The position numbers were made by a program, and so were the translations under genes. A stretch of DNA of 63,687 nt, the filler included, from Sphacelaria rigidula (taxonomy: Eukaryota): the NCBI GenBank assembly GCA_964200075.2. It is 11 parts of 11 records of this genome, joined end to end, with 100 filler letters (N's around TTAATTAATTAA, not from the genome) between each part and the next. Parts side by side here need not be neighbours in the genome. Positions count along the whole stretch, not along the records: positions 11,599 to 17,297 come from CAXNAA020025153.1; 10 more parts are not named here. One strand, written 5' to 3'. Within the stretch, counting starts at the first letter, position 1, and the number at the start of each line of letters is the position of its first letter. The notes below the pieces were generated by a model, which saw only the letters and a program-made list of their open reading frames with translations, was not told the origin of the DNA and ran no database searches. Below, one piece after another: positions 5,700-62,149 of this stretch.

Positions 5700-5799
5700 N
5701 NNNNNNNNNNNNNNNNNNNNNNNNNNNNNNNNNNNNNNNNNNNTTAATTAATTAANNNNNNNNNNNNNNNNNNNNNNNNNNNNNNNNNNNNNNNNNNNN
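5700..5799. other. Artificial contig linker (also at 11499-11598, 17298-17397, 23097-23196, 28896-28995, 34695-34794, 40494-40593, 46293-46392, 52092-52191, 57890-57989)
   Basis: N44 + TTAATTAATTAA (stops in all six frames) + N44, repeated every 5,798-5,799 nt. Confidence 0.99.
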
Positions 5800-8959: not shown

Positions 8960-10916
8960 GGGTCTTCCGGGTGCATCACGGTGAGAAACCCAGTTGAGCA
9001 ATACACTTTGCCCTCAGAGGTGTTCCACGGGTCTATGTCGCATATAAAACCGCATGTAGACTGGGTTGGACCATGCCATGTTCGAGATTCAGAATCATTC
9101 TATCGCCATAATATCACACGCGCCTCCTTTTTATGACCACGTGAATGTAGGACATATGCATAAATAACAGTACAGGAAGGTCCTTGGACCAGTTTTGAGC
9201 GCAAAAAGTATATCCCCCTATATTGAACAGGGGATTCTATGAAATGAGGTTCATCAATGAAATGAGGTTTGAAGACCCTAGCCCTTGAATGACGAAAAGC
9301 CCTCAGGAGTACCGCACGACACTGCTGATGCGCAGTTTTTGGGAGGAGTAGGAAGTGCGTCCGTGGTTTCACATGCCGCCCATCCCTGGTTAGCTGCAGG
9401 CGACGGAGCATGACAACGTTTGTTTGACTGTCGACGATGTTTTTACTGTTGTTCATCTCGAGGGTCGTGTCCAGACAAAAATCTCGGGCGTCAAGTTGCT
9501 GTCAGTAAGGTCAGTAAGGTGCTGTCAGTGACGTGGTGGGGGGATATCACTGCCAACGCAGTGACGTGCCGAGCGGATGATTGGGCGTCCAATGTCCTGA
9601 AATATCGACGGCCGATGCACAAAGTGAATAGTTTATTGCACGACTCAACCGTACTGCAAATACCCGTCGAGCTTTCCGATCCGGTTCGAGCATATATGAG
9701 GCGGCAATGTCTCTGTCGAAAGAGAAATCGTTGGCATCCACTCCCAAGATCGCTTCGTACGGTCCCGCCATACACACCATCGCAACACCGCATCATGCTA
9801 CATGACAGCATCTCGACCCCGCCCTGAACCGTACGTTCGCGCCCGCATCCCGACCTGTATGTGAACCTATTGCTTTCACTCTCCAACTGCGCCACTGCAA
9901 CTCGAGACTCCAGCGTCATCACTAGTTGCTATTGCCATCACCACCATGATCACCATCGCCATCATTTCCAGTATCACAGTCATCATGGTCATCATCGGGG
10001 GCTACCTCGTCCTCCAACCCCTCTCGACCCGTGCCGCGTGTGGCCCTCAACCACCTTTGCTCGAATCCCGACCCACCTACGACCAGGTCCCCGAGAGTGA
10101 CCGCGATAGGCTGCTTCGCGGTGAGCCTCCCTTTCCTCTCTCGACTCTCTTGCACACTGGCTATTACAACATGCTGCATACCATCTGCGCCGCCTATCGC
10201 AGCGGTAATGTACGAGTCTCTGGGACCGTTGTGCGGTATTTTCGACTTGATCCCCACCACAACCCCCTCCCCGCCCGCATCCCATTCCAAATGGTAGAAT
10301 GGGCACGTGTCTGACACCTCCAAATACAGGGCCGCTTCCGGCTGGCAGGCTTCCCTGCCGGGTTCTACGAGGCGCCTGAGTTGTCTGTTGGATGCGACCG
10401 AGACCATGCGAATACATTTGCTGATGCAGGATTTCTTGAGGTATCGAATCCACAGCCTCTCTAGGCGTGTTGTATACCCTGTACTTTCCCCACAAGGGAA
10501 TTCGAGGGTAGACGATCTTCTGCTGGCCGGGCTTCGTGATGAGGAACAGCGTGTTCATCTGATTGAACATCGAACGCTGCGACCGAATCAACGGTGGACA
10601 AGGTAGAGATGGCCAGCGGAAACGAACATGAGAAAGTCAATTCAGGATACGGAGGAGGGGCGGTGGTTAGAATCAGCGCTCAGACAGGGGTCTCAAAACC
10701 ACGATGTGTAGTTGTTCCCGAAACCGCATGTCCCCCGGGCATCGCGATGTGGACGCGCCCATAAACGGACCCGAAAAAAACTGTTTTTTCACGAAGTGCG
10801 GTAAAGCGGGAGGGAAAACAAATCGATACCACGCAGTAAAACAAAATTACATCTCCAACGGTGCACGAAAAAACAAAAACGCGCACCCATGTCCCACTTT
10901 CTATTTGGACCTCTCA

Positions 10917-11037
10917 GGGGGGGGCGTACTCGTTTGTTGCTTGCCTTAGTCGTTTGACCGTTGACCACGCATCTTTTTCGAGACGGAGCACCGTTCCTAC
11001 TCCTAACAAAGACAGCTCCAATGTTCCGGCGCTCATT
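10917..11037 (-). mobile_element. Oligo-C-terminated short retroposon, family B copy
   Basis: G-run + CGTACTCGTTTGTTGCTTGCCTTAGTCGTTTGACC..., ~120 bp; same family as 26912-27150, 28418-28508, 41157-41232, 50163-50241 and 59860-59954. Confidence 0.8.
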
Positions 11038-11598
11038 ACGTTCCTTTAGCCGCTCACTACGTTTTTTCCAGACATTACACAAAAACCTTTTACATATCTT
11101 ATCTCCGTTCTGTTTCGCCGTCTCTGGCCACTATCTCCTAGTATGGATATCGTCTTCTCCCTACTGCTTAATGCATCAAACGATTGCATACCACCTTCGT
11201 CCACGTCCCGGATTTCCCCCTCTAGCACGTCCCACGCCGTCCCGTTCGAGTAGGGGGGGAAGGGTTCATAGGTGTGCGTTATTTTGTTTTTCGTGCACCC
11301 CCGACATCCCTTCAAATCGTGAGACAGTCGCGTACATATCAGGACGCAAACGGCGGTAAAGGGCGAGGGAAGAGAGGACTACGGGGTTACAGAGTCTTTA
11401 TCGCCCCCCATGCAGCGCGGGTTAGGAAAAAATATAACAGTCGTCGTGTGGAGGAGGGAGTAGATCGACAGAATTGCCTCTGTAGCAAGCAATAGAGANN
11501 NNNNNNNNNNNNNNNNNNNNNNNNNNNNNNNNNNNNNNNNNNTTAATTAATTAANNNNNNNNNNNNNNNNNNNNNNNNNNNNNNNNNNNNNNNNNNNN

Positions 11599-13669
11599 CG
11601 AGGTCATACAGGGACTGCGACAAGGATGTGTGGTGTCTCCTCTGCTGCTCAACATTGGTGTCGTAGGGGCGCTCGATCTCGTCCTCGTGCGATTCAGTGA
11701 GGACGGCGACATCATTCTCGAGGACATGGTATACCGGGAGGAGGAGACGGGGAGGGGGGCGGAGACACCACCGGGACCCTTGCGGAGAGCGGTGTGTGGA
11801 ATGATATAAGCGGAAGATGCCGGCGTCATTTCGGGATCCCACGACGACCTGGCGAGGACAATGACCGTTACAATGCACGTGTTTGGGGCCTTTATCAGAA
11901 TATTGCCGACCTGAGTCCCAGTGCACATGTACGTGGGCTATCAGTGCAAATTGACGGTGTTCTAGATTTACGGGGCGGAGATCATAGACCAATCATGACG
12001 TCGATATTGTGCTTTGAGTATATGTGCCACATGGACGTTCTACAGGCCCCCTACTGCCTTCAGTAGCCTTCTATATACTTGTACTGCGTATTCCGATACA
12101 GCATACTTGGGGTTTGGACGCAGCTCGAGGAGCTTGCACGGTCTACAATGGGTGAGTAAAGGGTATGAGGCGTTAATGAAGAAGAGTGACTACACATTCT
12201 CCTATATCCAGAGCATCCCCTTCAAGGGGCTTTTTCATAGCCCTTGTACTGACAGTGACGGAGATGAAGACGGAGACCCTCTTGATACGGGTACCCGAGG
12301 AATCGCCGAAGAAGTGGGAACCACCCTCGCCACCAACAGCATCTCGCCCGCCACTGGCCATGGAAGCAGCGGGCCAGAACCACGGGCAGATCACTCAGTT
12401 CCGACACATGTGTGATCTTGCCAACGAAGATGGCGAGCTTACACAAGATATCAACCGCCGGAGCAGACCAGCGTGGGTGTGCGTGAGGAAGCTCCCCCTA
12501 GAGCTCTTTGCCCAACCGAGAGCACCGTGGAGACTCGAGGTCCAACTGCTCAAAGCGAAGGCAGTGGAGACTCTACTGTACGGGTGCACGACGTGGCCTC
12601 CAACGGCCAGCGCTACCAGGGGCTGAGAAGGACGCACGATCGGCTCCTTTTGCGAGTTCTCAGGTACCGCCTCGTGCGTGGCACGTACCGACAGCTTTCG
12701 CACGCCCAGGCCCCCGTGAAGATTGGATGCCAGAGTGCCGATCCGCCCACCGCGACTGCTGTTCGCGGGAGCTCGGGGTTGACAACCGGACGGATGACTA
12801 CCGAAGGGACTGGTGTTCGGAACAGCTGTGGGAGGGTGGGGTCCAGGAAAAGGATGCCCGGAGCAACACTAGCTGAAGTGCCTCAGGAACGATCTCGTAG
12901 CGCTCGGAGCCAAAGACGGCTCTACGGATATAAACGCCGTTCGGAGTTGACAGCGTCCTCTCGACTAGAGCAGCCAAGAAGGTGGAGGGAACGCCATGGC
13001 ACGCGGGGGTGCTGCGACAATGGAAAAGGTGTATGACCTCATGGCACATGGACAAGGAGGAGGTCAGCCGACGGCGCGCGAGTAAACGGGACAACAACGG
13101 AGTCAGAACAGCAGAGACGACCGCTAAGAGGGTGGTGGGAGGATGAGGTGTGAACAACCGAAAAAACGCATGAAGATTCTAACTACAAATATCAAAGCGG
13201 TCGAGGAGAGCAGGAAGGAGATGGAAGAACGTATACAGTAGCCAGATATGTATCGAGCTGCATGTGGGGGGGGTTGCAGGAATACCCACCACCACCCTAT
13301 GCCTTTTTTTATGGCTATTTCCTTCCTTCCCTTGTGCGGTACTCTTCCCCCGATGTGGTGTGTCGTCATTTGCTGTTCATGTTATGTCCAGTATAATCGT
13401 ACATACGGTGGTCCCTCCAATGTCTGCGTACGGCTGGGGTGTACCTGTGCGATGAAGTCCCGGCATGGAATATTCCAGCATGATACTTGTGGGAATGTGG
13501 GGTTGACTTGGAGTTCAGGGTACAAGTATAGAACCTTGCGACTTTCATTGCTACGACTAGGGATCTCTGAGTATATGCCTGTTCGGCTTCGCCTGTGGGA
13601 TCTTGTCTCCAGTAGTCCAAATGGTCGCCTGCGACACCGGAATTAAATGAGTACACACCCTCCGCCCCC
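11599..13669 (+). mobile_element. Decayed RTE-clade non-LTR retrotransposon (RT C-terminal half + 3' UTR), interrupted by a ~350-bp insertion at ~11894-12240
   Basis: Translates as QGLRQGCVVSPLLLNI...RRAVCGMI*AEDAGVIS (degenerate YADD motif), then LTVTEMKTET...EAAGQ...DINRRSRPAW...LLKAKAVETLLYGCTTW...HDRLLLRVL, with stops and frameshifts. Putative UTR ends AAATGAGTACACACCCTCCGCCCCC. Confidence 0.88.
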
Positions 13670-15790
13670 CTTTTATGGGGAAGACTTGTGAAGAATACTG
13701 TGTAAGGTGGGGGAATACGTGATACGTGCCTACTGGAATCCGCCCATGTCGATTTTGCTGGTTCCTGTTTTATTTCTCTTCCCCCATCACACCTCATTTG
13801 GGCTACTGGGTCTGTGGCCGAGTTCGCATTAGATGCCCAGTGTAAGTACTGTTCAGATATCGAACCATCCGTGATGTGAAGGCAGCAACAGTGGCCACGG
13901 CTGGAATTGTAGCACGTCGGCCAATGTGCGACAATCGACAATCAACGATGGCATCACTTCGAAATGCTGAGGAACACATGCACGAAGTACACAAACGCGC
14001 TGACAGGTGTACATGGAGAAGGTACAGCGCACATACCTAATATAGTTGGCCCGCGCCTGTTGACAGAAAATTGCCGCGGATCGATGATCAACATCGAGCC
14101 CATTTGAGCAGATACATTGTTTTCACTCCCAATTCTGTAGTCCAACAATTGTCCAGTAATACTGCAACCACGGGCATGTGTTCGTGTTCAGCAGAAGGTA
14201 CCACATGAAGCATTGAAGTAGACGTCGAGACACCCCGCATACACCGTCAGACGGCAGGGTGCTACTTTCTTGCCTGTCTCCTTTCTCGTCAACCGACCAT
14301 GGAATATCACCAGGACAGGGGAAATCGCAAAGTATGTAATACACCAGAAAACACACCCATGTCACTGCGCATGTGAAGAGAGTGCTCCCTGTCAATCCAG
14401 TGGCTGCATGCATTTGTCTTACGTGTACATCATGCAGGTAGCGAGATGAGCGAGAAATAGAACCACAGTTACAAGTGTTATCAGCGTATATTGTTCAGGC
14501 ATCATCACCTTTTCATGTCACCACTACGACCACGAAGAAACCATTCAACATCACAACCACACCGTATGCATCCCTTACACCACAACACCTACAATCATCT
14601 GCCTTGCTTCCCCGACACGTTCCTCCACAACAGTCAGTTCTATCAGCATATGCACCCTATCTATATTTCCCTTCCAGTACACTTTTCGCCACCAGTGCGA
14701 GTAGAATCGTAGCTTTCAAGCCCAAGGTGACCCCGCCTAGACCCTATCCGCATCCGGGTGCCTCCTTGGAAAAGAGGGTTGCTACAGCGGGGTCGAAGAC
14801 CATCAACATTATGCTGACCGTGACTTGTACCCGCAACCCACAAGGGGCTGCAGACACGACGGAGCTTTACACGGTCGTGAGCACAACATCCACACATGGA
14901 ACACGCACACATTTGCACGATACACATCCGTACCATTCTACACAAAATCACACCAATACGCCCCCTGCTGCCACACCTACTCAAATCATACGGAAAACAA
15001 AGCACAAGCAGGGACGAGCTAGGTCAAATATTGAACACAGTAAATGCCAAACATCCCACAACATGAGACCTACCGCAAACAAACACAGACAAGTCAAAGC
15101 CAGAGCCAAATTTGCATCATGCCCCCACTCTCACGCTCCAAGAAGCGAGAAAAGGTTTACTTCCAGCAACTGCAAGGAACAAACCACACACAAGTCGCGT
15201 CCATTCGAACCCACTTAGCCTCAAGTTCTACGTTGACGTGACAAAGCTTATCCAGCTAACGGACCGTATGTCTCACTAGGCGTACGCGATATCTATGCCC
15301 CCCCCTTCATCGAAAGGTCTCGCCTCCCAGTTGAACCAAGGTTCCCTGCAGGCAGGCGCAAGAATCCACATCCCACGCCCCATCATAATTGCTTCGTCAG
15401 TCTTCCATCAACCACAGCCGATACAGCGCAGCTTGTTTGAAGTCCCGATCGAAGGGTTACACACGATAGCCGGAGCACTGCAGTGATGACGATGGCGTCG
15501 TCAGTTTCTTCTCCAATTCACCGCATACCATCTGCAACGGAGACAACGTACGACACGCGAAGATCGTTTACGGAAACTCTTCAGGTGGAAAATGCACCCG
15601 TACAGCCAACATTTCCATCATCTCCACATAGCAAACATATTCCATGCGGATGATAACCTTGACTGGGAGCGAAGACTGCACGAGACAAGAGATGGCTTGA
15701 CCCACGGTACTCACGTTAGACCTCGCGACAACATGTCTCCACACTGCACAACGCTTCCTCCACGCTCGAGCTCGTGCCCCACCAGCTCAC

Positions 15791-16143
15791 AAACTTGTAA
15801 GTGGTTCCCGCCCCCCTTCCAACAGGAGACCTCAGCATGCGGCGCCCGTCGCCGCTGCTGGCCACGGCATCAGAGTCCCACTCGTAGTCGTCCGACAGGT
15901 CATACGACAAGTCATAAGGGAAGTTTTCATCGAAGAAGTCTTTGAAGGAAGAGGACTCGTCGTCGTAGCCGTAAGAGTAGATGCCGTCGTCTCCATCGGA
16001 TCCGGGCCCCGGCGCTGGCTCGGGCGGTACCGCTTCGTCGTTGGGGTCGTGCTTGCAGTCCTTGTCCGCGGCATTGTCTATGATGGCGAAGCCTGCCGGG
16101 CACACGTAGGACATGCAGCTGCCATGTTGCGCTTGGGGTTGGC
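15791..16143 (-). CDS. Exon of a Cys-rich repeat, probably extracellular, protein with an acidic Asp/Tyr-rich segment
   Basis: Acceptor CTTATCCTACAG, donor GTGAGC (alternative AA|GTTTGT possible); in phase with the exon at 17173-17297; encodes SCMSYVCPAGFAIIDNAADKDC...YSYGYDDE...GRRMLRS. Confidence 0.75.
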
Positions 16144-16369
16144 CTGTAGGATAAGATACGTTGCGGCGGAGGGTGCGGAGAGAGTGGGATGATCGCGTGT
16201 ATTCAGCTGCTGCATGCGTACTGAGACGTGCAATGCTATCTGCTGTCGAGTACAAGAGAAGGAAGGTATTGTTTTCCGCGTGCGTTTGCTGAGCTGCATG
16301 TTAAGAAACCTGTCTATGAAACACCTGCTGTGTGTCTGACACGGGAGATTTTGGGCAAGAATGGGAAAT

Positions 16370-16745
16370 TTGGGGCGTCGATATTCCAGATCTTTTGGCA
16401 GTGAACAGTCCAAACACCCTGGAATATCCAGTTTTGTGGATGCTGAATCAGTACTCCAGGTGGTACACGTTACCCGTCATAGTATTGTCGACAGTCGATA
16501 CCCCGGGTACTTCGGGGTACTCGGCATTTGCAGCGGTCGATATTTCAGGAATATCAGCGTTTCTGGCAGTTGGTCATCCATTTGCTCTGGGTTGCTCAGC
16601 ATTTTCGATACCCGATACTCCTTGTACTCGGGAACACTCTGGCGTTCCAGAGGCCAAGTACCTACAGATACTCTAGTACAATACCCGCTACTCTCATTAG
16701 CCATTACTCCCAGTTACTTTGGAATACGTGCGTATAGTACCGCCG
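16370..16745. repeat. Degenerate GATAC/GTACTC-rich intronic satellite-like repeat
   Basis: Recurring TCGATA(C/T), GTACTC and GGCAGT motifs at irregular ~30-bp spacing. Confidence 0.5.
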
Positions 16746-17172
16746 ACTACATCAACACTCTAGCGCCGTAATCACATCCTCACGCTTTCAAACAACCGGA
16801 CCCAAGACAGAAAATTAGAAGCGGCTGAGAATCGAACCCCCTTCTTCGATTTCAAAATGAATCATGTCGATCACCCACCCCCATCTATGTGTGTGTTTTC
16901 TGCCGGACACATGGCGACTCGGACGTCGACAAATTCCATATACGACAGAGAGTTTGTACCTCCATCTGCCTCAACCAGATAGCACGGTTGGAGCTGGGTC
17001 GACGTTGCTTTCTTACCCACGTCACATCTGCGGAGACAGCGTCTCCACGACGTGATAGATAAACGTGGGTTGGTACTCGGGGCGAACACGCTTAGTTCAA
17101 GTCAAAGCCGCACGCCTACTGGTAGTGAGTACACGTACTCGCACTCCGAAGTATCTCCCCACTTCCACTTAC

Positions 17173-17297
17173 CAGCATCGCAGCACGCTTCCTGGGTGCA
17201 GACGCCGTTCTCGCACGAGGTCGTGTCGGCGTAGGGGATAGGGTTGGTGCCGGCTGCACACCCGAAGCTCGAGCAAAACAACGAACAGCACTGCTCC
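17173..17297 (-). CDS. Upstream exon (cut by the contig end) of the same Cys-rich repeat protein
   Basis: EQCCSLFCSSFGCAAGTNPIPYADTTSCENGVCTQEACCDA then G|GTAAGT donor, phase 1, matching the next exon. Confidence 0.8.
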
Positions 17298-20319: not shown

Positions 20320-20584
20320 AGGCAATCGATACAGTGTCTCTTGAGCTGCCAGGCAGGTCGGGTCGTTCGTTGGATGCGGAGTTGAACTCAAGATGCGACC
20401 CGGGACGCAAATGCCCCACCTTGATGATCGAGGGATGCAGAAACAAAAAGCGTCTCGAGGTTACTCGAGCACGGATGGATGTCGCTTGTCGGAATTCCAC
20501 GTTTTTGTTTTTCCCTGACGGAAGAAGGAAACCCAACCCAATATTTACCCCGCAAGCAAGTCTTGCAAGCGAGTTAATTCCACC

Positions 20585-20706
20585 GGTGTGTCTCTTCAGC
20601 AGCTCCACTTTCCTCGGGTATGCCTTTTCAGTAGCTTCATTTTCGGCGGGTGTGTCTCTTCAGCAGCTTCATTTTGCTCGGGTATGCCTCTTTTGCAGCT
20701 CCATTC
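20585..20706. repeat. Minisatellite, ~32-bp unit x ~4 with an alternating dimer structure
   Basis: GGTGTGTCTCTTCAGCAGCT.CA.TTT and GGGTATGCCT...AGCT.CATT units alternate. Confidence 0.75.
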
Positions 20707-24781: not shown

Positions 24782-25164
24782 GGCCAAGTCTTCGCATATT
24801 ATTTTTCGATCGAAAACGTGCGGTGGAAAAAAAAAAATGATCTGATAGGTTGGTTGTCCGTCCCGTCGACACGAGTGACGTCGGCATAAACGACGACCTG
24901 TACCAGATCGGATCACGTCTTTTCCCACCGCGCGTACGTTTTCGATTGAAACCTATTTTGGCTAAGAGCCTGTCTTAGCACATGGGTTTTCCATTGAAAT
25001 TGTGCGGTGGAAAGCAAAAATCCCGATCTGATGGGTCGTAATTTCAACCATCGTCACTAGTTTTGAAGATGGTCGATATCATGACCTATCAGATCAGGAT
25101 TTTTGTTTCCATCGCACTTTTCGATCGAAAACTAATGTGTTAAGACAGGGCCTGAGACACGCCA
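24782..25164. mobile_element. Two nested Tourist/PIF-Harbinger-like MITEs (inner 24966-25152 inside the right TIR of the outer)
   Basis: Outer element flanked by TTA/TTA; inner GAGCCTGTCTTAGCACAT...ATGTGTTAAGACAGGGCC flanked by TAA/TGA; both are long imperfect palindromes with TTTTCGATCGAAAA motifs. Confidence 0.75.
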
Positions 25165-27445: not shown

Positions 27446-27807
27446 ATGAATGTGTATTGTCGTCCCATCTATTCTGGACGCCGGTCTACACCTTTCGGGA
27501 TATGTGGGCGCATCAGCTGGGGTCACACAGGAGGATGGTCAACACAGAAGCTTCTTCTTTTTTATTTGTTTTTAGTAGCCCACCTTCCTTCTGCGGTGCT
27601 TGCCTTTCATTTTTATCGCGAGAGGGGTTCGGCAGTCCCTTTCCCTCGTCGACCGTTACGTCGAATTTTGTGTACCCACGACATAGTCGCTCTCCACTAC
27701 TGTTGGGCATGGTGTGAGAAAAAATCCCAGATCGCTCCGAGAATTGAACCCACGACCCAACCAACAAAAGGTTTCGTGGTTACCAACTGAACCACCGGGG
27801 CGACCGG
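27446..27807 (-). mobile_element. tRNA-derived SINE, full-length, with a candidate CATGAATG target duplication
   Basis: A/B-box head at the 27807 end; CATGAATG at 27445-27452 and 27810-27817. Confidence 0.85.
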
Positions 27808-28417: not shown

Positions 28418-28508
28418 CCCCCCCTCCCCCCTCCGTCTCGAAAGGGATGCGTGGTCAATGGTCAAACGACCAAGGCAAGCAACAAATGGGTACGCCCCCC
28501 CCTCCCCG
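28418..28508 (+). mobile_element. Family B oligo-C-terminated copy flanked by CCCCCCCTCCCC direct repeats
   Basis: CCCCCCCTCCCC ... AAATGGGTACG CCCCCCCCTCCCC; abuts a family A copy. Confidence 0.8.
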
Positions 28509-28820
28509 CTGATGGTGAAACACCCATGAGGCAATGTGGAACCCGTGGCCGTCTCTAGAAGTGGTGATACCAAAAAATGAAGGCACTCATTGGAGGCTGC
28601 CATCCAAATGCAAGATAATCAGTATGGTTCGTGCCGAGCAATCTTAGCAGGATGCGGCTCACCCGTCATGCGACTCGCCGTACACATCACGGCGCTGCGC
28701 GCTTGGTGATTGAGTGCGAGCCTGGTATGGCGAAAACCCGGCGTGCTCCGTCCCTGCTTTGTAGGGATGCGAGGTCAATGGTCTTGTGACTACGGCACGC
28801 AAGATCATGCGTACCCTCCG

Positions 28821-28857
<37 letters not shown>
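28509..28857 (+). mobile_element. Family A oligo-C-terminated retroposon, apparently full-length (~310 bp + C tail)
   Basis: ATGGTGAAACACCCATGAGGCA ... GGTCAATGGTCTTGTGACTACGGCACGCAAGATCATGCGTAC + long C-run. Confidence 0.8.
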
Positions 28858-29835
28858 ACACCACCCCCCCGAACAGCACGAGAGGAAGTCTCTCCNNNNN
28901 NNNNNNNNNNNNNNNNNNNNNNNNNNNNNNNNNNNNNNNTTAATTAATTAANNNNNNNNNNNNNNNNNNNNNNNNNNNNNNNNNNNNNNNNNNNNTAGCA
29001 ACAGCTAGGTCACCACCATAGGTATCTTTTTTCACTCCGCATGTCAAAAAGGTCTCTACAAGTGTTTGATCTCTCATACACCCCCCTCAACTGGCGTGTG
29101 GCAGGCCCTTCTGCTCGGGCACCCCGTTGGGGGAGGTCGGGGAAAGTCAACGATGAATAACACCCCCTAAGTTCAAATTGGATCTATCTCTTACTGCCGC
29201 AGCACCGCCCTTCCTGGCATATGTGTGACAGAGAACAGTAGTAGCGGTGAGGGGAACATTGCCCTATTTGTTCAACGACATGTTTTTCAGTGCACAGACG
29301 CGCATCCTGTCGAAAAGGAGAGGCAGAGAGGAATCGATCTTCGCATTCGTAAGCTCGACAGGCAAGGAGAGACGACGGAATCTCTCCGCACGTCGATGTT
29401 CTGGCGCATGAATATTTTGGCACATGGTGGTATAATAACATCGATGATGCCAGTTTCTCAAGCGATTGGTAATCGCCGAGCGAGGATACACAAAGGACAC
29501 GGGCGAGGAGTTTCCTCTCTGTCTTTGCTTCTATCTCTGGTGATATCGTCATCGACACGCGTGTACACCGCATTCGTCAGGTGCACCTAGCCACAGCTGC
29601 TCATGCCCCTCCAACCCCGTATTTTGTATGAAACACATTTTCTAGGATCCACTGTTATATTGGACCTCGTGGAGGGGCATCTTGGAACTGAAGCGATTTA
29701 ATCGCTACTTGACCGATTTTCACTCTCAATCGTATCCTCTACTCTGACTTTCACGACAACACTGTTTCCTCACGTTGGACACGATACCCGCATTGTCTCA
29801 TTTGCAATCAAGAGGGTTTTAGCCAGACTGGGAGT

Positions 29836-37732: not shown

Positions 37733-38114
37733 AGTGTTTATCCGACCCATCCATTTAGGGCGCCAGTGTACACCATGCGGTATATGTGGGCGCATCGTCA
37801 GCCGGGGTCGCACCGGACGAATATCATCACCACCCAGGAGCGTTTTCTTTTTTTCTTTTTTTCTAGAATTCCACCTTCCTTCTGCCATCCTTTCCTTACT
37901 TTTTATCGCGACAAGGGTCGGGGTTCAGCGGTCTCTTTCCCTCGTCGAACATGAAGCACAGTCATGTGTACCCACGACATAGATCGATCTCTACTTATGG
38001 ACACGACGTGAGGGAAAATCCCAGATGGTGTAACTTCGGGATTCGAACCCACATCTAATAAACCGTCAACCGTGCGAAGGTCTTGAGGTTACCAACTGGA
38101 CCACCGGAGCAACC
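37733..38114 (-). mobile_element. tRNA-derived SINE, diverged copy
   Basis: Head GGTTGCTCCGGTGGTCCAGTTGG...GGGTTCGAATCCC; body homologous to the other copies. Confidence 0.8.
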
Positions 38115-42288: not shown

Positions 42289-43308
42289 GGGCGTGTCTTA
42301 TTAGCATTTTTTTTTCGATCGAAAAAGTGCGGTCGATTTTTTCTTCGCTGATGTGATAGGTCCACCGCATTTATGTTCCTAGAAGGCTTCAACTCAAAAT
42401 TATACTTTGTGGCACGGGGAGAAAAAACTATTTGACTCAAGAAATAATCCGTTTCGATCGAAAACATGTGGTCGTAAGGCACGATGCGGCACTTGACTCC
42501 TATCTGACAGATCACCGCGCCAGATAATACCCGTTCACAGAATCATGCAAACTCCATCCAACTCATTCTCAGCTACCACCGCAACCCTGCAGCATAGAGC
42601 ACGAGTTGAGCACAGGGATGGATACACTGCAGTAGTTGGGTATACTTTGTTTATTTTTCGTTGGCGAAAACCTGCGCATCTACCTTCATCGTAGGGATCA
42701 GCGACGGACCTGCGTGGTACGGTGGGTAACCGGGTTGCGTACACGCTCATCGACAGCATAGGCAGTGCAAAGCTGCACGTTGTTGAAGTCCTTCTCATGT
42801 TGCAGTGTAAGCAGAGAGAACGGATAGTCCTGGGCTGTCTCCACTGAACGGTGCCCGCTCTTCTTCTATATCCTACGGTACGAAACGCGCACACACGCAC
42901 TCACGACACACTGCTTGCAAGCAGTGCAGACCGTACAGACTGCCTGTACTGTTGTGCACGAGTGACCATGTACCGTTTCACGGATTTCACTCTTTTTTCG
43001 ATCGAAAGCTTGAAAAATCGCTTGGATCCAACTCGACGACAGTGAGCGATTTTCGTTCAAATCGATTCCACCGCCCCATTTTTTCGGTTGAGAAAAAAAG
43101 TGCGAAGGCCGTGTCTTATCAAATTGTTTTCGTGTCGAAAACGTGCGGTTGAATCGAATTCGCTCGTTTCTGATTTGTCCACGCTGTTCATTTTCTCATA
43201 TGGTTGAGAACATGGGTGCCGCGGACGTATCAAGTACAAGCAAATTCGATTGCACCGTACGTTTTCGAGTCGAAAACAATCTGATAAGGCACGGCCTAAG
43301 ACACGAGC
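42289..43308. mobile_element. ~1-kb non-autonomous PIF/Harbinger-like element with a related 190-bp MITE (43107-43296) inside its right TIR
   Basis: TTA|GGGCGTGTCTTA...TAAGACACGAGC|TTA; inner GGCCGTGTCTTATCA...TGATAAGGCACGGCC. Confidence 0.82.
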
Positions 43309-50162: not shown

Positions 50163-50241
50163 GGGGGGGGGGCGTACTCATTTGTTGCTTGCCTTAGTCG
50201 TTTGACCATTGACCACGCATCCCTTTCGAGACGGGGGGGGG
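50163..50241 (-). mobile_element. Family B oligo-C-terminated copy bounded by G-runs on both sides, in a TOR intron
   Basis: G-run + CGTACTCATTTGTTGCTTGCCTTAGTCGTTTGACCATTGACCACGCATCCCTTTCGAGAC + G-run. Confidence 0.82.
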
Positions 50242-57624: not shown

Positions 57625-57889
57625 GGTCGCCCCGGTGGCTCAGTTGGTAACCTCGTAACCTTCTGATGGTTGAGTAGGGGTGTTCGATTCCCGGAGCGAG
57701 ATCGAGGGAAAATGACTGCTGGATCCCTCTCGCGATAAAAATAAAAGGCAAGCACCGCAGAAGGAAGGTGGGGTATTTAAATCAAATAAAAGAGAAGAAG
57801 CTCCTGTTTTGAACTTCCTCCTGTGTGACCCCGGCTGATGCGCCCACATACACCGAAAAGGTGTAGACTGGTGCCCAGAGTAAATGGGA
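57625..57889 (+). mobile_element. tRNA-derived SINE with an internal deletion, cut by the contig end
   Basis: GGTCGCCCCGGTGGCTCAGTTGG...GTTCGATTCCC head joined directly to the GAGGGAAA body segment. Confidence 0.85.
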
Positions 57890-59870: not shown

Positions 59871-59902
<32 letters not shown>

Positions 59903-59954
59903 ACTATCGCCCCCCCTATCAGGCAAGCAACAAATGAGTACGCCCCCACTATCG
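59860..59954 (+). mobile_element. Very short family B copy with a 12-bp target duplication
   Basis: CCCCCACTATCG (59898-59909 and 59943-59954) flanks CCCCCCCTATCAGGCAAGCAACAAATGAGTACG. Confidence 0.8.
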
Positions 59955-61788: not shown

Positions 61789-62149
61789 AGGGGGGAGGGG
61801 TGTACTCATGAGGGGGGAGGGGGGGGGGGGTGTACTCGTAATCTTGCATGCCATAGTCGTAAGACCATCGACCTCGCATCCCTAAAAAGACGGGACAGAG
61901 CACGCCGGGGTTTCGCCGGACAAGGCCCGCACTTGATCTCTAAGCGCGTAGTGTCGTGGTGTGCTCGGCGAGTCGCATCAAGGGTGAGCGGCATCCTGCT
62001 ATGATATCCGGCCCGAGGGGAAGTGATTATCTTGCATTTGGATGGCAGCTTACAATGTGTTGCTCTACTTTCTGGTATCGCCACTTCCAGGGACAGCCAC
62101 GACCTATGCACTGCCTCATGGGTGTCTCACCATGTGGTAGAGGAGGGGG
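61789..62149 (-). mobile_element. Family A copy plus an adjacent 10-nt micro-copy
   Basis: AGGGGGGAGGGG|TGTACTCATG|AGGGGGGAGGGG, then G-run + TGTACTCGTAATCTTGCATGCC...CCTCATGGGTGTCTCACCAT + G-rich end. Confidence 0.8.

Follow-up and report, generated by a model that had tools for sequence, protein, structure and literature searches.

An apparent poly(C) end of an RTE-type LINE in Sphacelaria rigidula is a junction with the inserted end of another repeat family

We analysed a stretch of 63,687 nucleotides from Sphacelaria rigidula (GenBank assembly GCA_964200075.2, which holds 244 Mb in 27,214 contigs). This stretch, hereafter the window, consists of 11 contigs of about 5.7 kb each with N spacers between them. 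An earlier reading of the sequence alone had proposed that a decayed RTE-type long interspersed nuclear element (LINE) on one of these contigs, C25153, ends in the motif ATGAGTAC followed by a run of C, and that two families of short repeats with the same end, A and B, are either its short interspersed nuclear element (SINE) partners or the 3' untranslated regions (UTRs) of sister LINEs. We found that the poly(C) terminus of the RTE is a junction artefact. In all likelihood, two unrelated LINE systems overlap at this position: an old RTE-type LINE that ends in (CAA)n near 13890, and an abundant RTE-X-like system with C-run ends, in which family B is the autonomous element and family A its partner.

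The motif itself is present as described, with ATGAGTAC at 13647-13654 and a C-rich run that extends up to 13670. The window holds 12 occurrences of the degenerate form ATGMGTAC, where 3.1 would be expected, and a count of 12 was reached in none of 100 shuffles. About a dozen termini of the A or B type, each with a C-run, were located on the plus strand (13647, 26974, 28486, 28807, 41207 and 59934) and on the minus strand (89, 10933, 46469, 50181, 61809 and 61839), in agreement with the roughly 12 repeats that the sequence-only reading had counted.

The RTE-type LINE ends downstream of the C-run

The decayed RTE element that had been recognised upstream of the motif was readily confirmed. Its open reading frame (ORF), of which the late reverse transcriptase (RT) and the C-terminal region remain, occupies 11603..13110 on the plus strand; in a tblastn comparison, 11603-13089 matched the RTE-type protein P0048 with 51-63% identity (E 2e-69) and did not match the family B protein, and related copies were found at loci L007, L013, L020, L099 and L104. 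The frame is shifted and is interrupted at about 11894-12233, and the start of the contig cuts off its 5' part. Downstream of the ORF, the first part of the RTE 3' UTR (13190..13646, plus strand), which holds an internal AATGGTC stretch, aligns with 28 other loci at about 70-75% identity. The 3' UTR then resumes at 13748 and continues to its true terminus (13748..13891, plus strand), where GTGAAG is followed by a short CAG/CAA remnant. Twelve other copies in the same alignment run into (CAA)n, and the normal end of the family is reached at 13873-13891 in the window copy. The true 3' end of this LINE is GTGAAGA(CAA)n, near 13890.

The ends of other copies were surveyed at 36 RTE-family loci besides the window copy and its duplicate, 23 of which retain the AATGGTC anchor. 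None of these 23 shows GTAC plus a C-run within 60 nt of the anchor; in 22, the next conserved block of the RTE follows, and 15 have three or more CAA-type units in a row some 180-330 nt past the anchor. Copies of this lineage thus end in (CAA)n and not, as had been suggested, in a C-homopolymer, and the motif is a separate insertion, which is the outcome that the sequence-only reading had named as refuting its proposal. The shared pattern AATGGTC..GAC..GG, which had been read as part of a common terminus, is internal to the RTE. AATGGTC is exact at this site in 11 of the 23 copies, being the commonest 7-mer there, while the 'GAC' position reads GGC in 14 copies and GAC in four. Public contigs that diverge from the window at 13639-13641 also run on as RTE 3' UTR (four runs from one study, whose independence from this assembly is not certain); none of those listed bridges 13641-13658 to show the form of the junction in these runs. 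The sequencing runs listed as containing the sequence included no RNA run.

A family A end lies within the RTE 3' UTR

Contig C25153 (window 11600-17297) has a counterpart of 92-94% identity at C1042:1-5782, and portions of it are also present in inverted orientation at C1042:10400-12000. The pair may represent alleles, haplotigs or a segmental duplication.

Comparison of the two copies, which are 94% identical over 5 kb, revealed the origin of the apparent terminus. The junction in the C1042 duplicate is 16 bases longer and consists of RTE-like sequence followed by CAAGATCATG ahead of GTAC, which is the end of family A. By this comparison, 13647..13670 (plus strand) is the 3' terminus of a severely 5'-truncated insertion of family A, the RTE-X-like non-autonomous element, together with its C-rich run. 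A family A 3' end is inserted into the RTE 3' UTR at 13647. Behind it, about 30 nt of RTE 3' UTR are replaced by about 77 nt (13671..13747, plus strand) that do not belong to the RTE and arrived together with the A end. This stretch is present only here and in C1042; it was not seen in 12 other aligned RTE copies, and no source for it was found.

The spacing from AATGGTC to ATGAGTAC is 27 nt in the window copy, 43 nt in the C1042 duplicate and 29-30 nt in B and A, so that the B-like spacing is unique to the window copy. Because both halves of the longer C1042 junction match independent families, we infer that it is the older form. The window copy has probably lost about 16 nt by a deletion between two ATG(A/G)G repeats, as a result of which its spacing came to resemble that of A and B. 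In the order of events that we propose, a tiny A end accompanied by about 77 nt of foreign sequence would have entered the RTE 3' UTR at 13647 with a small target deletion, and the later loss of about 16 nt would have joined this end to the RTE-internal AATGGTC, giving rise to a look-alike terminus.

Family B is an autonomous LINE of another lineage

In a general search with RVT_1, two of 30 RT loci had family B sequence just downstream. A search with the B-type RT gave 149 matches, most of which carry stop codons, and 30 loci were fetched. The B terminus was found downstream of the RT in 23 of these, at a distance of 770-830 nt in 18, and at least eight C within 14 nt followed the terminus in 21 of the 23. 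The family B ORF continues as far as the peptide ...KASNK; of 20 loci, 13 have TGA directly behind it and one has TAA. This TGA is the one contained in ATGAGTAC, which leaves family B a 3' UTR of only 4-5 nt before the C-run. Family B is thus protein-coding almost to its last nucleotides and is neither a SINE nor a 3' UTR.

The domain order of family B was taken from the public relatives P0001 and P0002, since no intact copy was found in this genome. These proteins are 72% and 65% identical, respectively, to the family B ORF stretch of this genome, and both carry Exo_endo_phos (PF03372) and RVT_1 (PF00078) in one ORF. P0001, full-length at 1360 amino acids, additionally contains a CCHC knuckle, and its C-terminal peptide is that of family B. 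When the B protein was searched against solved structures, the best matches were L1 ORF2p and R2. Named relatives of the LINE proteins in the window are mostly from Ectocarpus; with the family B ORF stretch, Ectocarpus proteins such as P0004 share 59% identity, and their C-terminal peptide is similar.

A C-terminal CCHC distinguishes RTE-X-like groups from RTE. Such a knuckle was present in 10 of 11 B-type proteins, the exception (P0009) appearing to be cut short, versus none of eight RTE-type relatives. In addition, the B-type and RTE-type RTs are only 27% identical over 296 columns and fall into separate clades of an RT tree, as the sequence-only reading had asked to see examined (29 proteins, midpoint root, built without named clade references). 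Family B is an autonomous endonuclease-RT-CCHC LINE that belongs to a lineage other than the RTE.

A 'GCVV(N/Y)G' peptide was also noted near the C-terminus of P0010, P0015 and P0018, three members of this LINE group, about 50% identical, that stand in public databases without a name. The terminal coding motif may for this reason be widely conserved.

Family A is the non-autonomous partner of family B

The longest copies of family A measure 557-571 nt (about 570 nt), and most copies are 5'-truncated. Within the element, a direct repeat of about 50 nt lies between the 5' end and the 3' part. Over the terminal 72 columns, 52 are identical between A and B (72%). The sequence-only reading had asked whether the two families lead upstream into ORFs encoding an apurinic/apyrimidinic (AP) endonuclease and an RT; B does lead into an RT. 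Family A is a non-autonomous partner of about 570 nt that shares its last 70 nt or so with family B. A LINE and a non-autonomous element with common C-run ends do exist in this genome, as had been surmised, with the CCHC-bearing family B as the autonomous member in place of the RTE.

As to the head of family A, no tRNA was detected in eight loci and no Rfam match, hammerhead included, at E values up to 0.5 in six loci, in both cases with the reservation that decayed copies could hide a head. Rfam likewise gave no match on the whole window at gathering score. The C-terminus of Ectocarpus P0004 was used to look for another autonomous family that ends like A, and the best 20 of 150 matches were all B-type. 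A first look returned about 3,000 candidates each for A and B, of which 40 were scored; these figures are not copy numbers.

At L087, L077, L084, L069 (window 28425-28860) and L157, copies of A and B follow one another head to tail, joined by common C-runs. Chains of this kind would be expected if each insertion left a C-run as a target for the next.

The C-run and its relation to the target site

What can be seen directly of the A/B system is its anatomy, the varying extent of 5' truncation, the C-rich sequence to either side and a small number of target-site duplications (TSDs). To describe the flanks, 60 family A copies were fetched and 50 were usable after removal of four duplicates and six copies at contig edges. 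Regardless of the point of truncation, the 3' flank was C-rich in 39 of the 50 and the 5' flank in 28, under thresholds that differ between the two sides. Random positions passed the 5' test in 1.6% of cases. A C-rich 5' flank is therefore far more frequent than at random, indicating that C-rich sites pre-exist and that the C-run is at least partly target sequence. For family B, C-rich flanking sites were judged by eye at three loci within the window; TSDs were not counted from the first family B search, which had returned mostly copies embedded in a larger repeat.

The credible TSDs of family A, three in number, are informative with respect to the C-run. Two of the three start with a C-run. 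At L077, the TSD begins straight after GTAC without an extra C; at L098, two extra nucleotides stand between the element end and the TSD; and at L094, 23 C-rich nucleotides that are absent from the target precede a TSD of 42 nt. Judging from these sequences, the flanks of the A copies, which are old, fit priming at C/G-runs with a short and variable C tract supplied by the RNA. According to this model, target-primed reverse transcription would take place at C-rich sites after a nick by the endonuclease in the G-rich strand. The RT would recognise the conserved final 60-70 nt or so of the RNA, and a few Cs at the very end of this RNA would pair with the G-rich primer. The genomic 3' C-run would then be composed of the TSD and a short RNA-borne C tract.

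It is also conceivable, if rather unlikely, that the C-run is wholly target site, made up of the TSD and later slippage, and that the RNA has no C tail. This alternative differs from the two-system model above only in the priming step. It would account for L077 and for the frequency of C-rich 5' flanks, but not for the additional nucleotides at L094 and L098, and C-richness is more frequent on the 3' side than on the 5' side, subject to the difference in thresholds.

In the opposite direction, we tentatively consider that priming in brown algal RTE-X elements could be a G:C mirror of L1 priming, an idea to which we give somewhat less than even weight. An RNA ending in oligo(C), acquired by read-through into a donor C-run or by untemplated addition, would anneal to a nicked G-run, and each insertion would renew the C-run target. 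Such renewal would explain both the A/B chains and transductions such as 13647-13747. Because the ORF ends 4-5 nt from the end of the RNA, the recognition signal for the RT would in this case lie inside coding sequence. No test of an oligo(C) priming mechanism was found in those parts of the literature that were searched, and a search for poly-C-tailed LINEs gave nothing usable. If the RNA does end in oligo(C), the system would lend itself to the study of LINE priming that does without poly(A) or AT-rich tails.

Comparison with catalogued brown algal elements

The sequence-only reading knew of no described equivalent of a C-ended LINE and partner. Such elements are, however, catalogued in a supplementary table on Ectocarpus sp. 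7 (PMC12477816, supplement MOESM3), although the available portion of the main text does not discuss the C ends. There, RTEX-1_Ec32 is listed with 'single EN-RT ORF; (C)n 3'' and a C-rich TSD, and RTEX-2 with '(C)n termini/TSD'. RTEX-1_Ec32 and RTEX-2_Ec32, as listed, resemble family B in their single endonuclease-RT (EN-RT) ORF and (C)n 3' end, apparently also in their thousands of copies, and possibly in a C-rich TSD. They differ in that the B copies described here are older and come from another species, and the table entries make no mention of a 3' UTR of 4-5 nt with the stop codon in ATGAGTAC.

The same table describes RTEX-N1 as a non-autonomous element of 607 bp that may occur in tandem and whose last 60 bp show 83% similarity to RTEX-1/-2 (PMC12477816). 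Going by these entries, RTEX-N1_Ec32 and RTEX-N2_Ec32 are similar to family A in length (about 600 nt; 607 versus about 570) and in sharing the last 60 nt or so with an autonomous element (83% there, 72% here). They and family A also have in common an unclassified 5' head, tandem copies, a C-rich TSD and great abundance. The internal direct repeat of about 50 nt in family A is not noted for RTEX-N1 in the Ectocarpus table, the bodies of the two being compared by description only. Judged by its size (2.48 Mb) and rank only, RTEX-N1 may be the old 'Sower' repeat, for which about 2.5 Mb is given in PMC3145265.

Ectocarpus RTE-1 and RTE-2 are entered in the table as ending in (CAA)n (PMC12477816). 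Likened by these descriptions, RTE-1_Ec32 and RTE-2_Ec32 share with the LINE at 11603-13891 a single EN-RT ORF and a (CAA)n 3' end; unlike them, the LINE is represented here by old copies, with about 70-75% identity in the 3' UTR.

Taken together, the analysis of ends, ORFs and partners suggests that the C-ended LINE and its partner are very probably the brown algal RTE-X system catalogued in Ectocarpus. RTEX is named as a Repbase clade in PMC5753468, the available part of which does not give its defining features, and a literature search for these features gave nothing usable. The A/B pair would represent a second brown algal example of a C-ended RTE-X LINE with a partner of about 570 nt, to which the present data add the stop codon within the terminal motif and the pre-existence of C-rich sites on the 5' side. 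To annotate an RTE with a poly(C) end would, in contrast, mislead repeat annotation.

Weighing of the two-system reading

A number of observations weigh against the reading of two overlapping systems. Among the RTE loci, 13 of 36 have no recognisable anchor (they are truncated, interrupted or too diverged) and are uninformative on the end, and a clear CAA run is wanting in eight of the 23 anchored copies. Of the remaining B-type RT loci among the 30 fetched, four end with the contig, one has a degenerate end and two have long flanks but no B end; two of the 23 B ends lack a C-run. A C-rich 5' flank is absent from 22 of the 50 A copies, and TSDs were called in five of the 50, with three credible, compared to one of 120 in the control; one doubtful call was a tandem-B artefact and the other a CA microsatellite. 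The name RTE-X was assigned from the agreement of descriptions and from homologues in Ectocarpus (P0004, 59%), not from an alignment to RTEX-1_Ec32 or Repbase. Only one duplicate was at hand to judge in which direction the 16-nt difference arose. Finally, the insertion at 13647 is atypical in having neither a TSD nor a C-rich target, for which reason we infer that it arose by 3' transduction or break repair.

Penelope-like elements (PLEs) of the Chlamys type were considered as an alternative identity for A and B, since they are reported to target (C)n (PMC8557442), form pseudo-long terminal repeats and tandems, and are represented by Chlamys families in Ectocarpus. As described there, Chlamys PLEs resemble A and B in an insertion bias to (C)n, non-autonomous partners with a common 3' end, and tandems; family A, with its direct repeat of about 50 nt, also forms tandems. 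We regard this explanation as very improbable. Chlamys PLEs have a GIY-YIG endonuclease and a Penelope-type RT, whereas the B protein combines an AP endonuclease with a LINE-type RT and has L1 ORF2p and R2 as its best structural matches; A shares its terminal columns with B, as given above; and Ectocarpus Chlamys-1 is listed with an (A)n end (PMC12477816). For family B, a Chlamys identity was ruled out by the finding of an AP endonuclease and RVT_1 instead of GIY-YIG and a Penelope-type RT; no search was aimed at a GIY-YIG/Penelope-RT element with an A terminus.

The idea of an RTE lineage that has a ATGAGTAC+(C)n terminus and drives the movement of A and B as its SINEs must be regarded as refuted, since the adjacency of the motif to RTE sequence and the occurrence of AATGGTC both as the commonest 7-mer at the RTE site and in A and B are outweighed by the 23 anchored copies without such an end, the continuation of the window copy to a CAA-type end, the A-derived junction in C1042, and the possession by B of its own ORF with a distant RT.

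Copies of A and B and other features of the window

Several further copies of both families were delineated. On the minus strand, 10917..11231 is a 5'-truncated family B copy comprising the ORF C-terminus, the stop codon and the C-run (tblastn to P0001 residues 1267-1360, E 2e-25), which lies inside a larger repeat of about 2.5 kb. Also on the minus strand, a short B end at 50163..50241, identified from the sequence and by tblastn, has C-runs on both sides, with nine C 5' and ten C 3'. A very short B end of about 22 nt, read from the sequence at 59897..59954 (plus strand), is flanked by a direct repeat of 12 nt that begins with five C and is a probable TSD. Another B end with its C-run occupies 28425-28503, with C-runs on both sides over 28418-28503. 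Directly behind this B end and its C-run follows a 5'-truncated family A copy of 304 nt with a run of 37 C (28511..28860, plus strand). Finally, a 5'-truncated A copy with a C-run is found at 61820..62133 on the minus strand, and a second, bare terminus follows at 61809; both A copies were recognised from the sequence.

The repeat of about 2.5 kb covers window 9224-11418 (minus strand relative to L219-L223) and is present as a full unit at, for example, L222:3429-5919. It is 90-94% identical among six loci and has sharp ends, at which no terminal inverted repeat could be made out by eye. This unclassified repeat encloses a fragment of family B together with its C-run, and several of its copies are themselves nested at one end in a different repeat. 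Of the 30 loci from the first family B search, about 17-19 belong to the 2.5-kb repeat.

The 100-nt spacers with a central TTAATTAATTAA (5700-5799, 11499-11598 and then every 5.8 kb or so) are assembly linkers and non-biological. At window 15716-16300 (minus strand), an open frame that spans 194 codons and includes an acidic stretch rich in Ser, Tyr and Asp is possibly an exon of a host gene. A dispersed family of repeats, at least 350 nt long, has four copies in the window: 2536-2886, 27451-27807 and 37734-37982 (+), and 57703-57858 (-). Additional dispersed repeats, about 75% identical and in opposite orientation, and a recurring motif of about 30-50 nt were noted at 1676-2124 and 42446-42904 and at 24788-25020 and 42308-43161. 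Three tandem copies of a repeat with a 32-nt period occupy 20578-20705.

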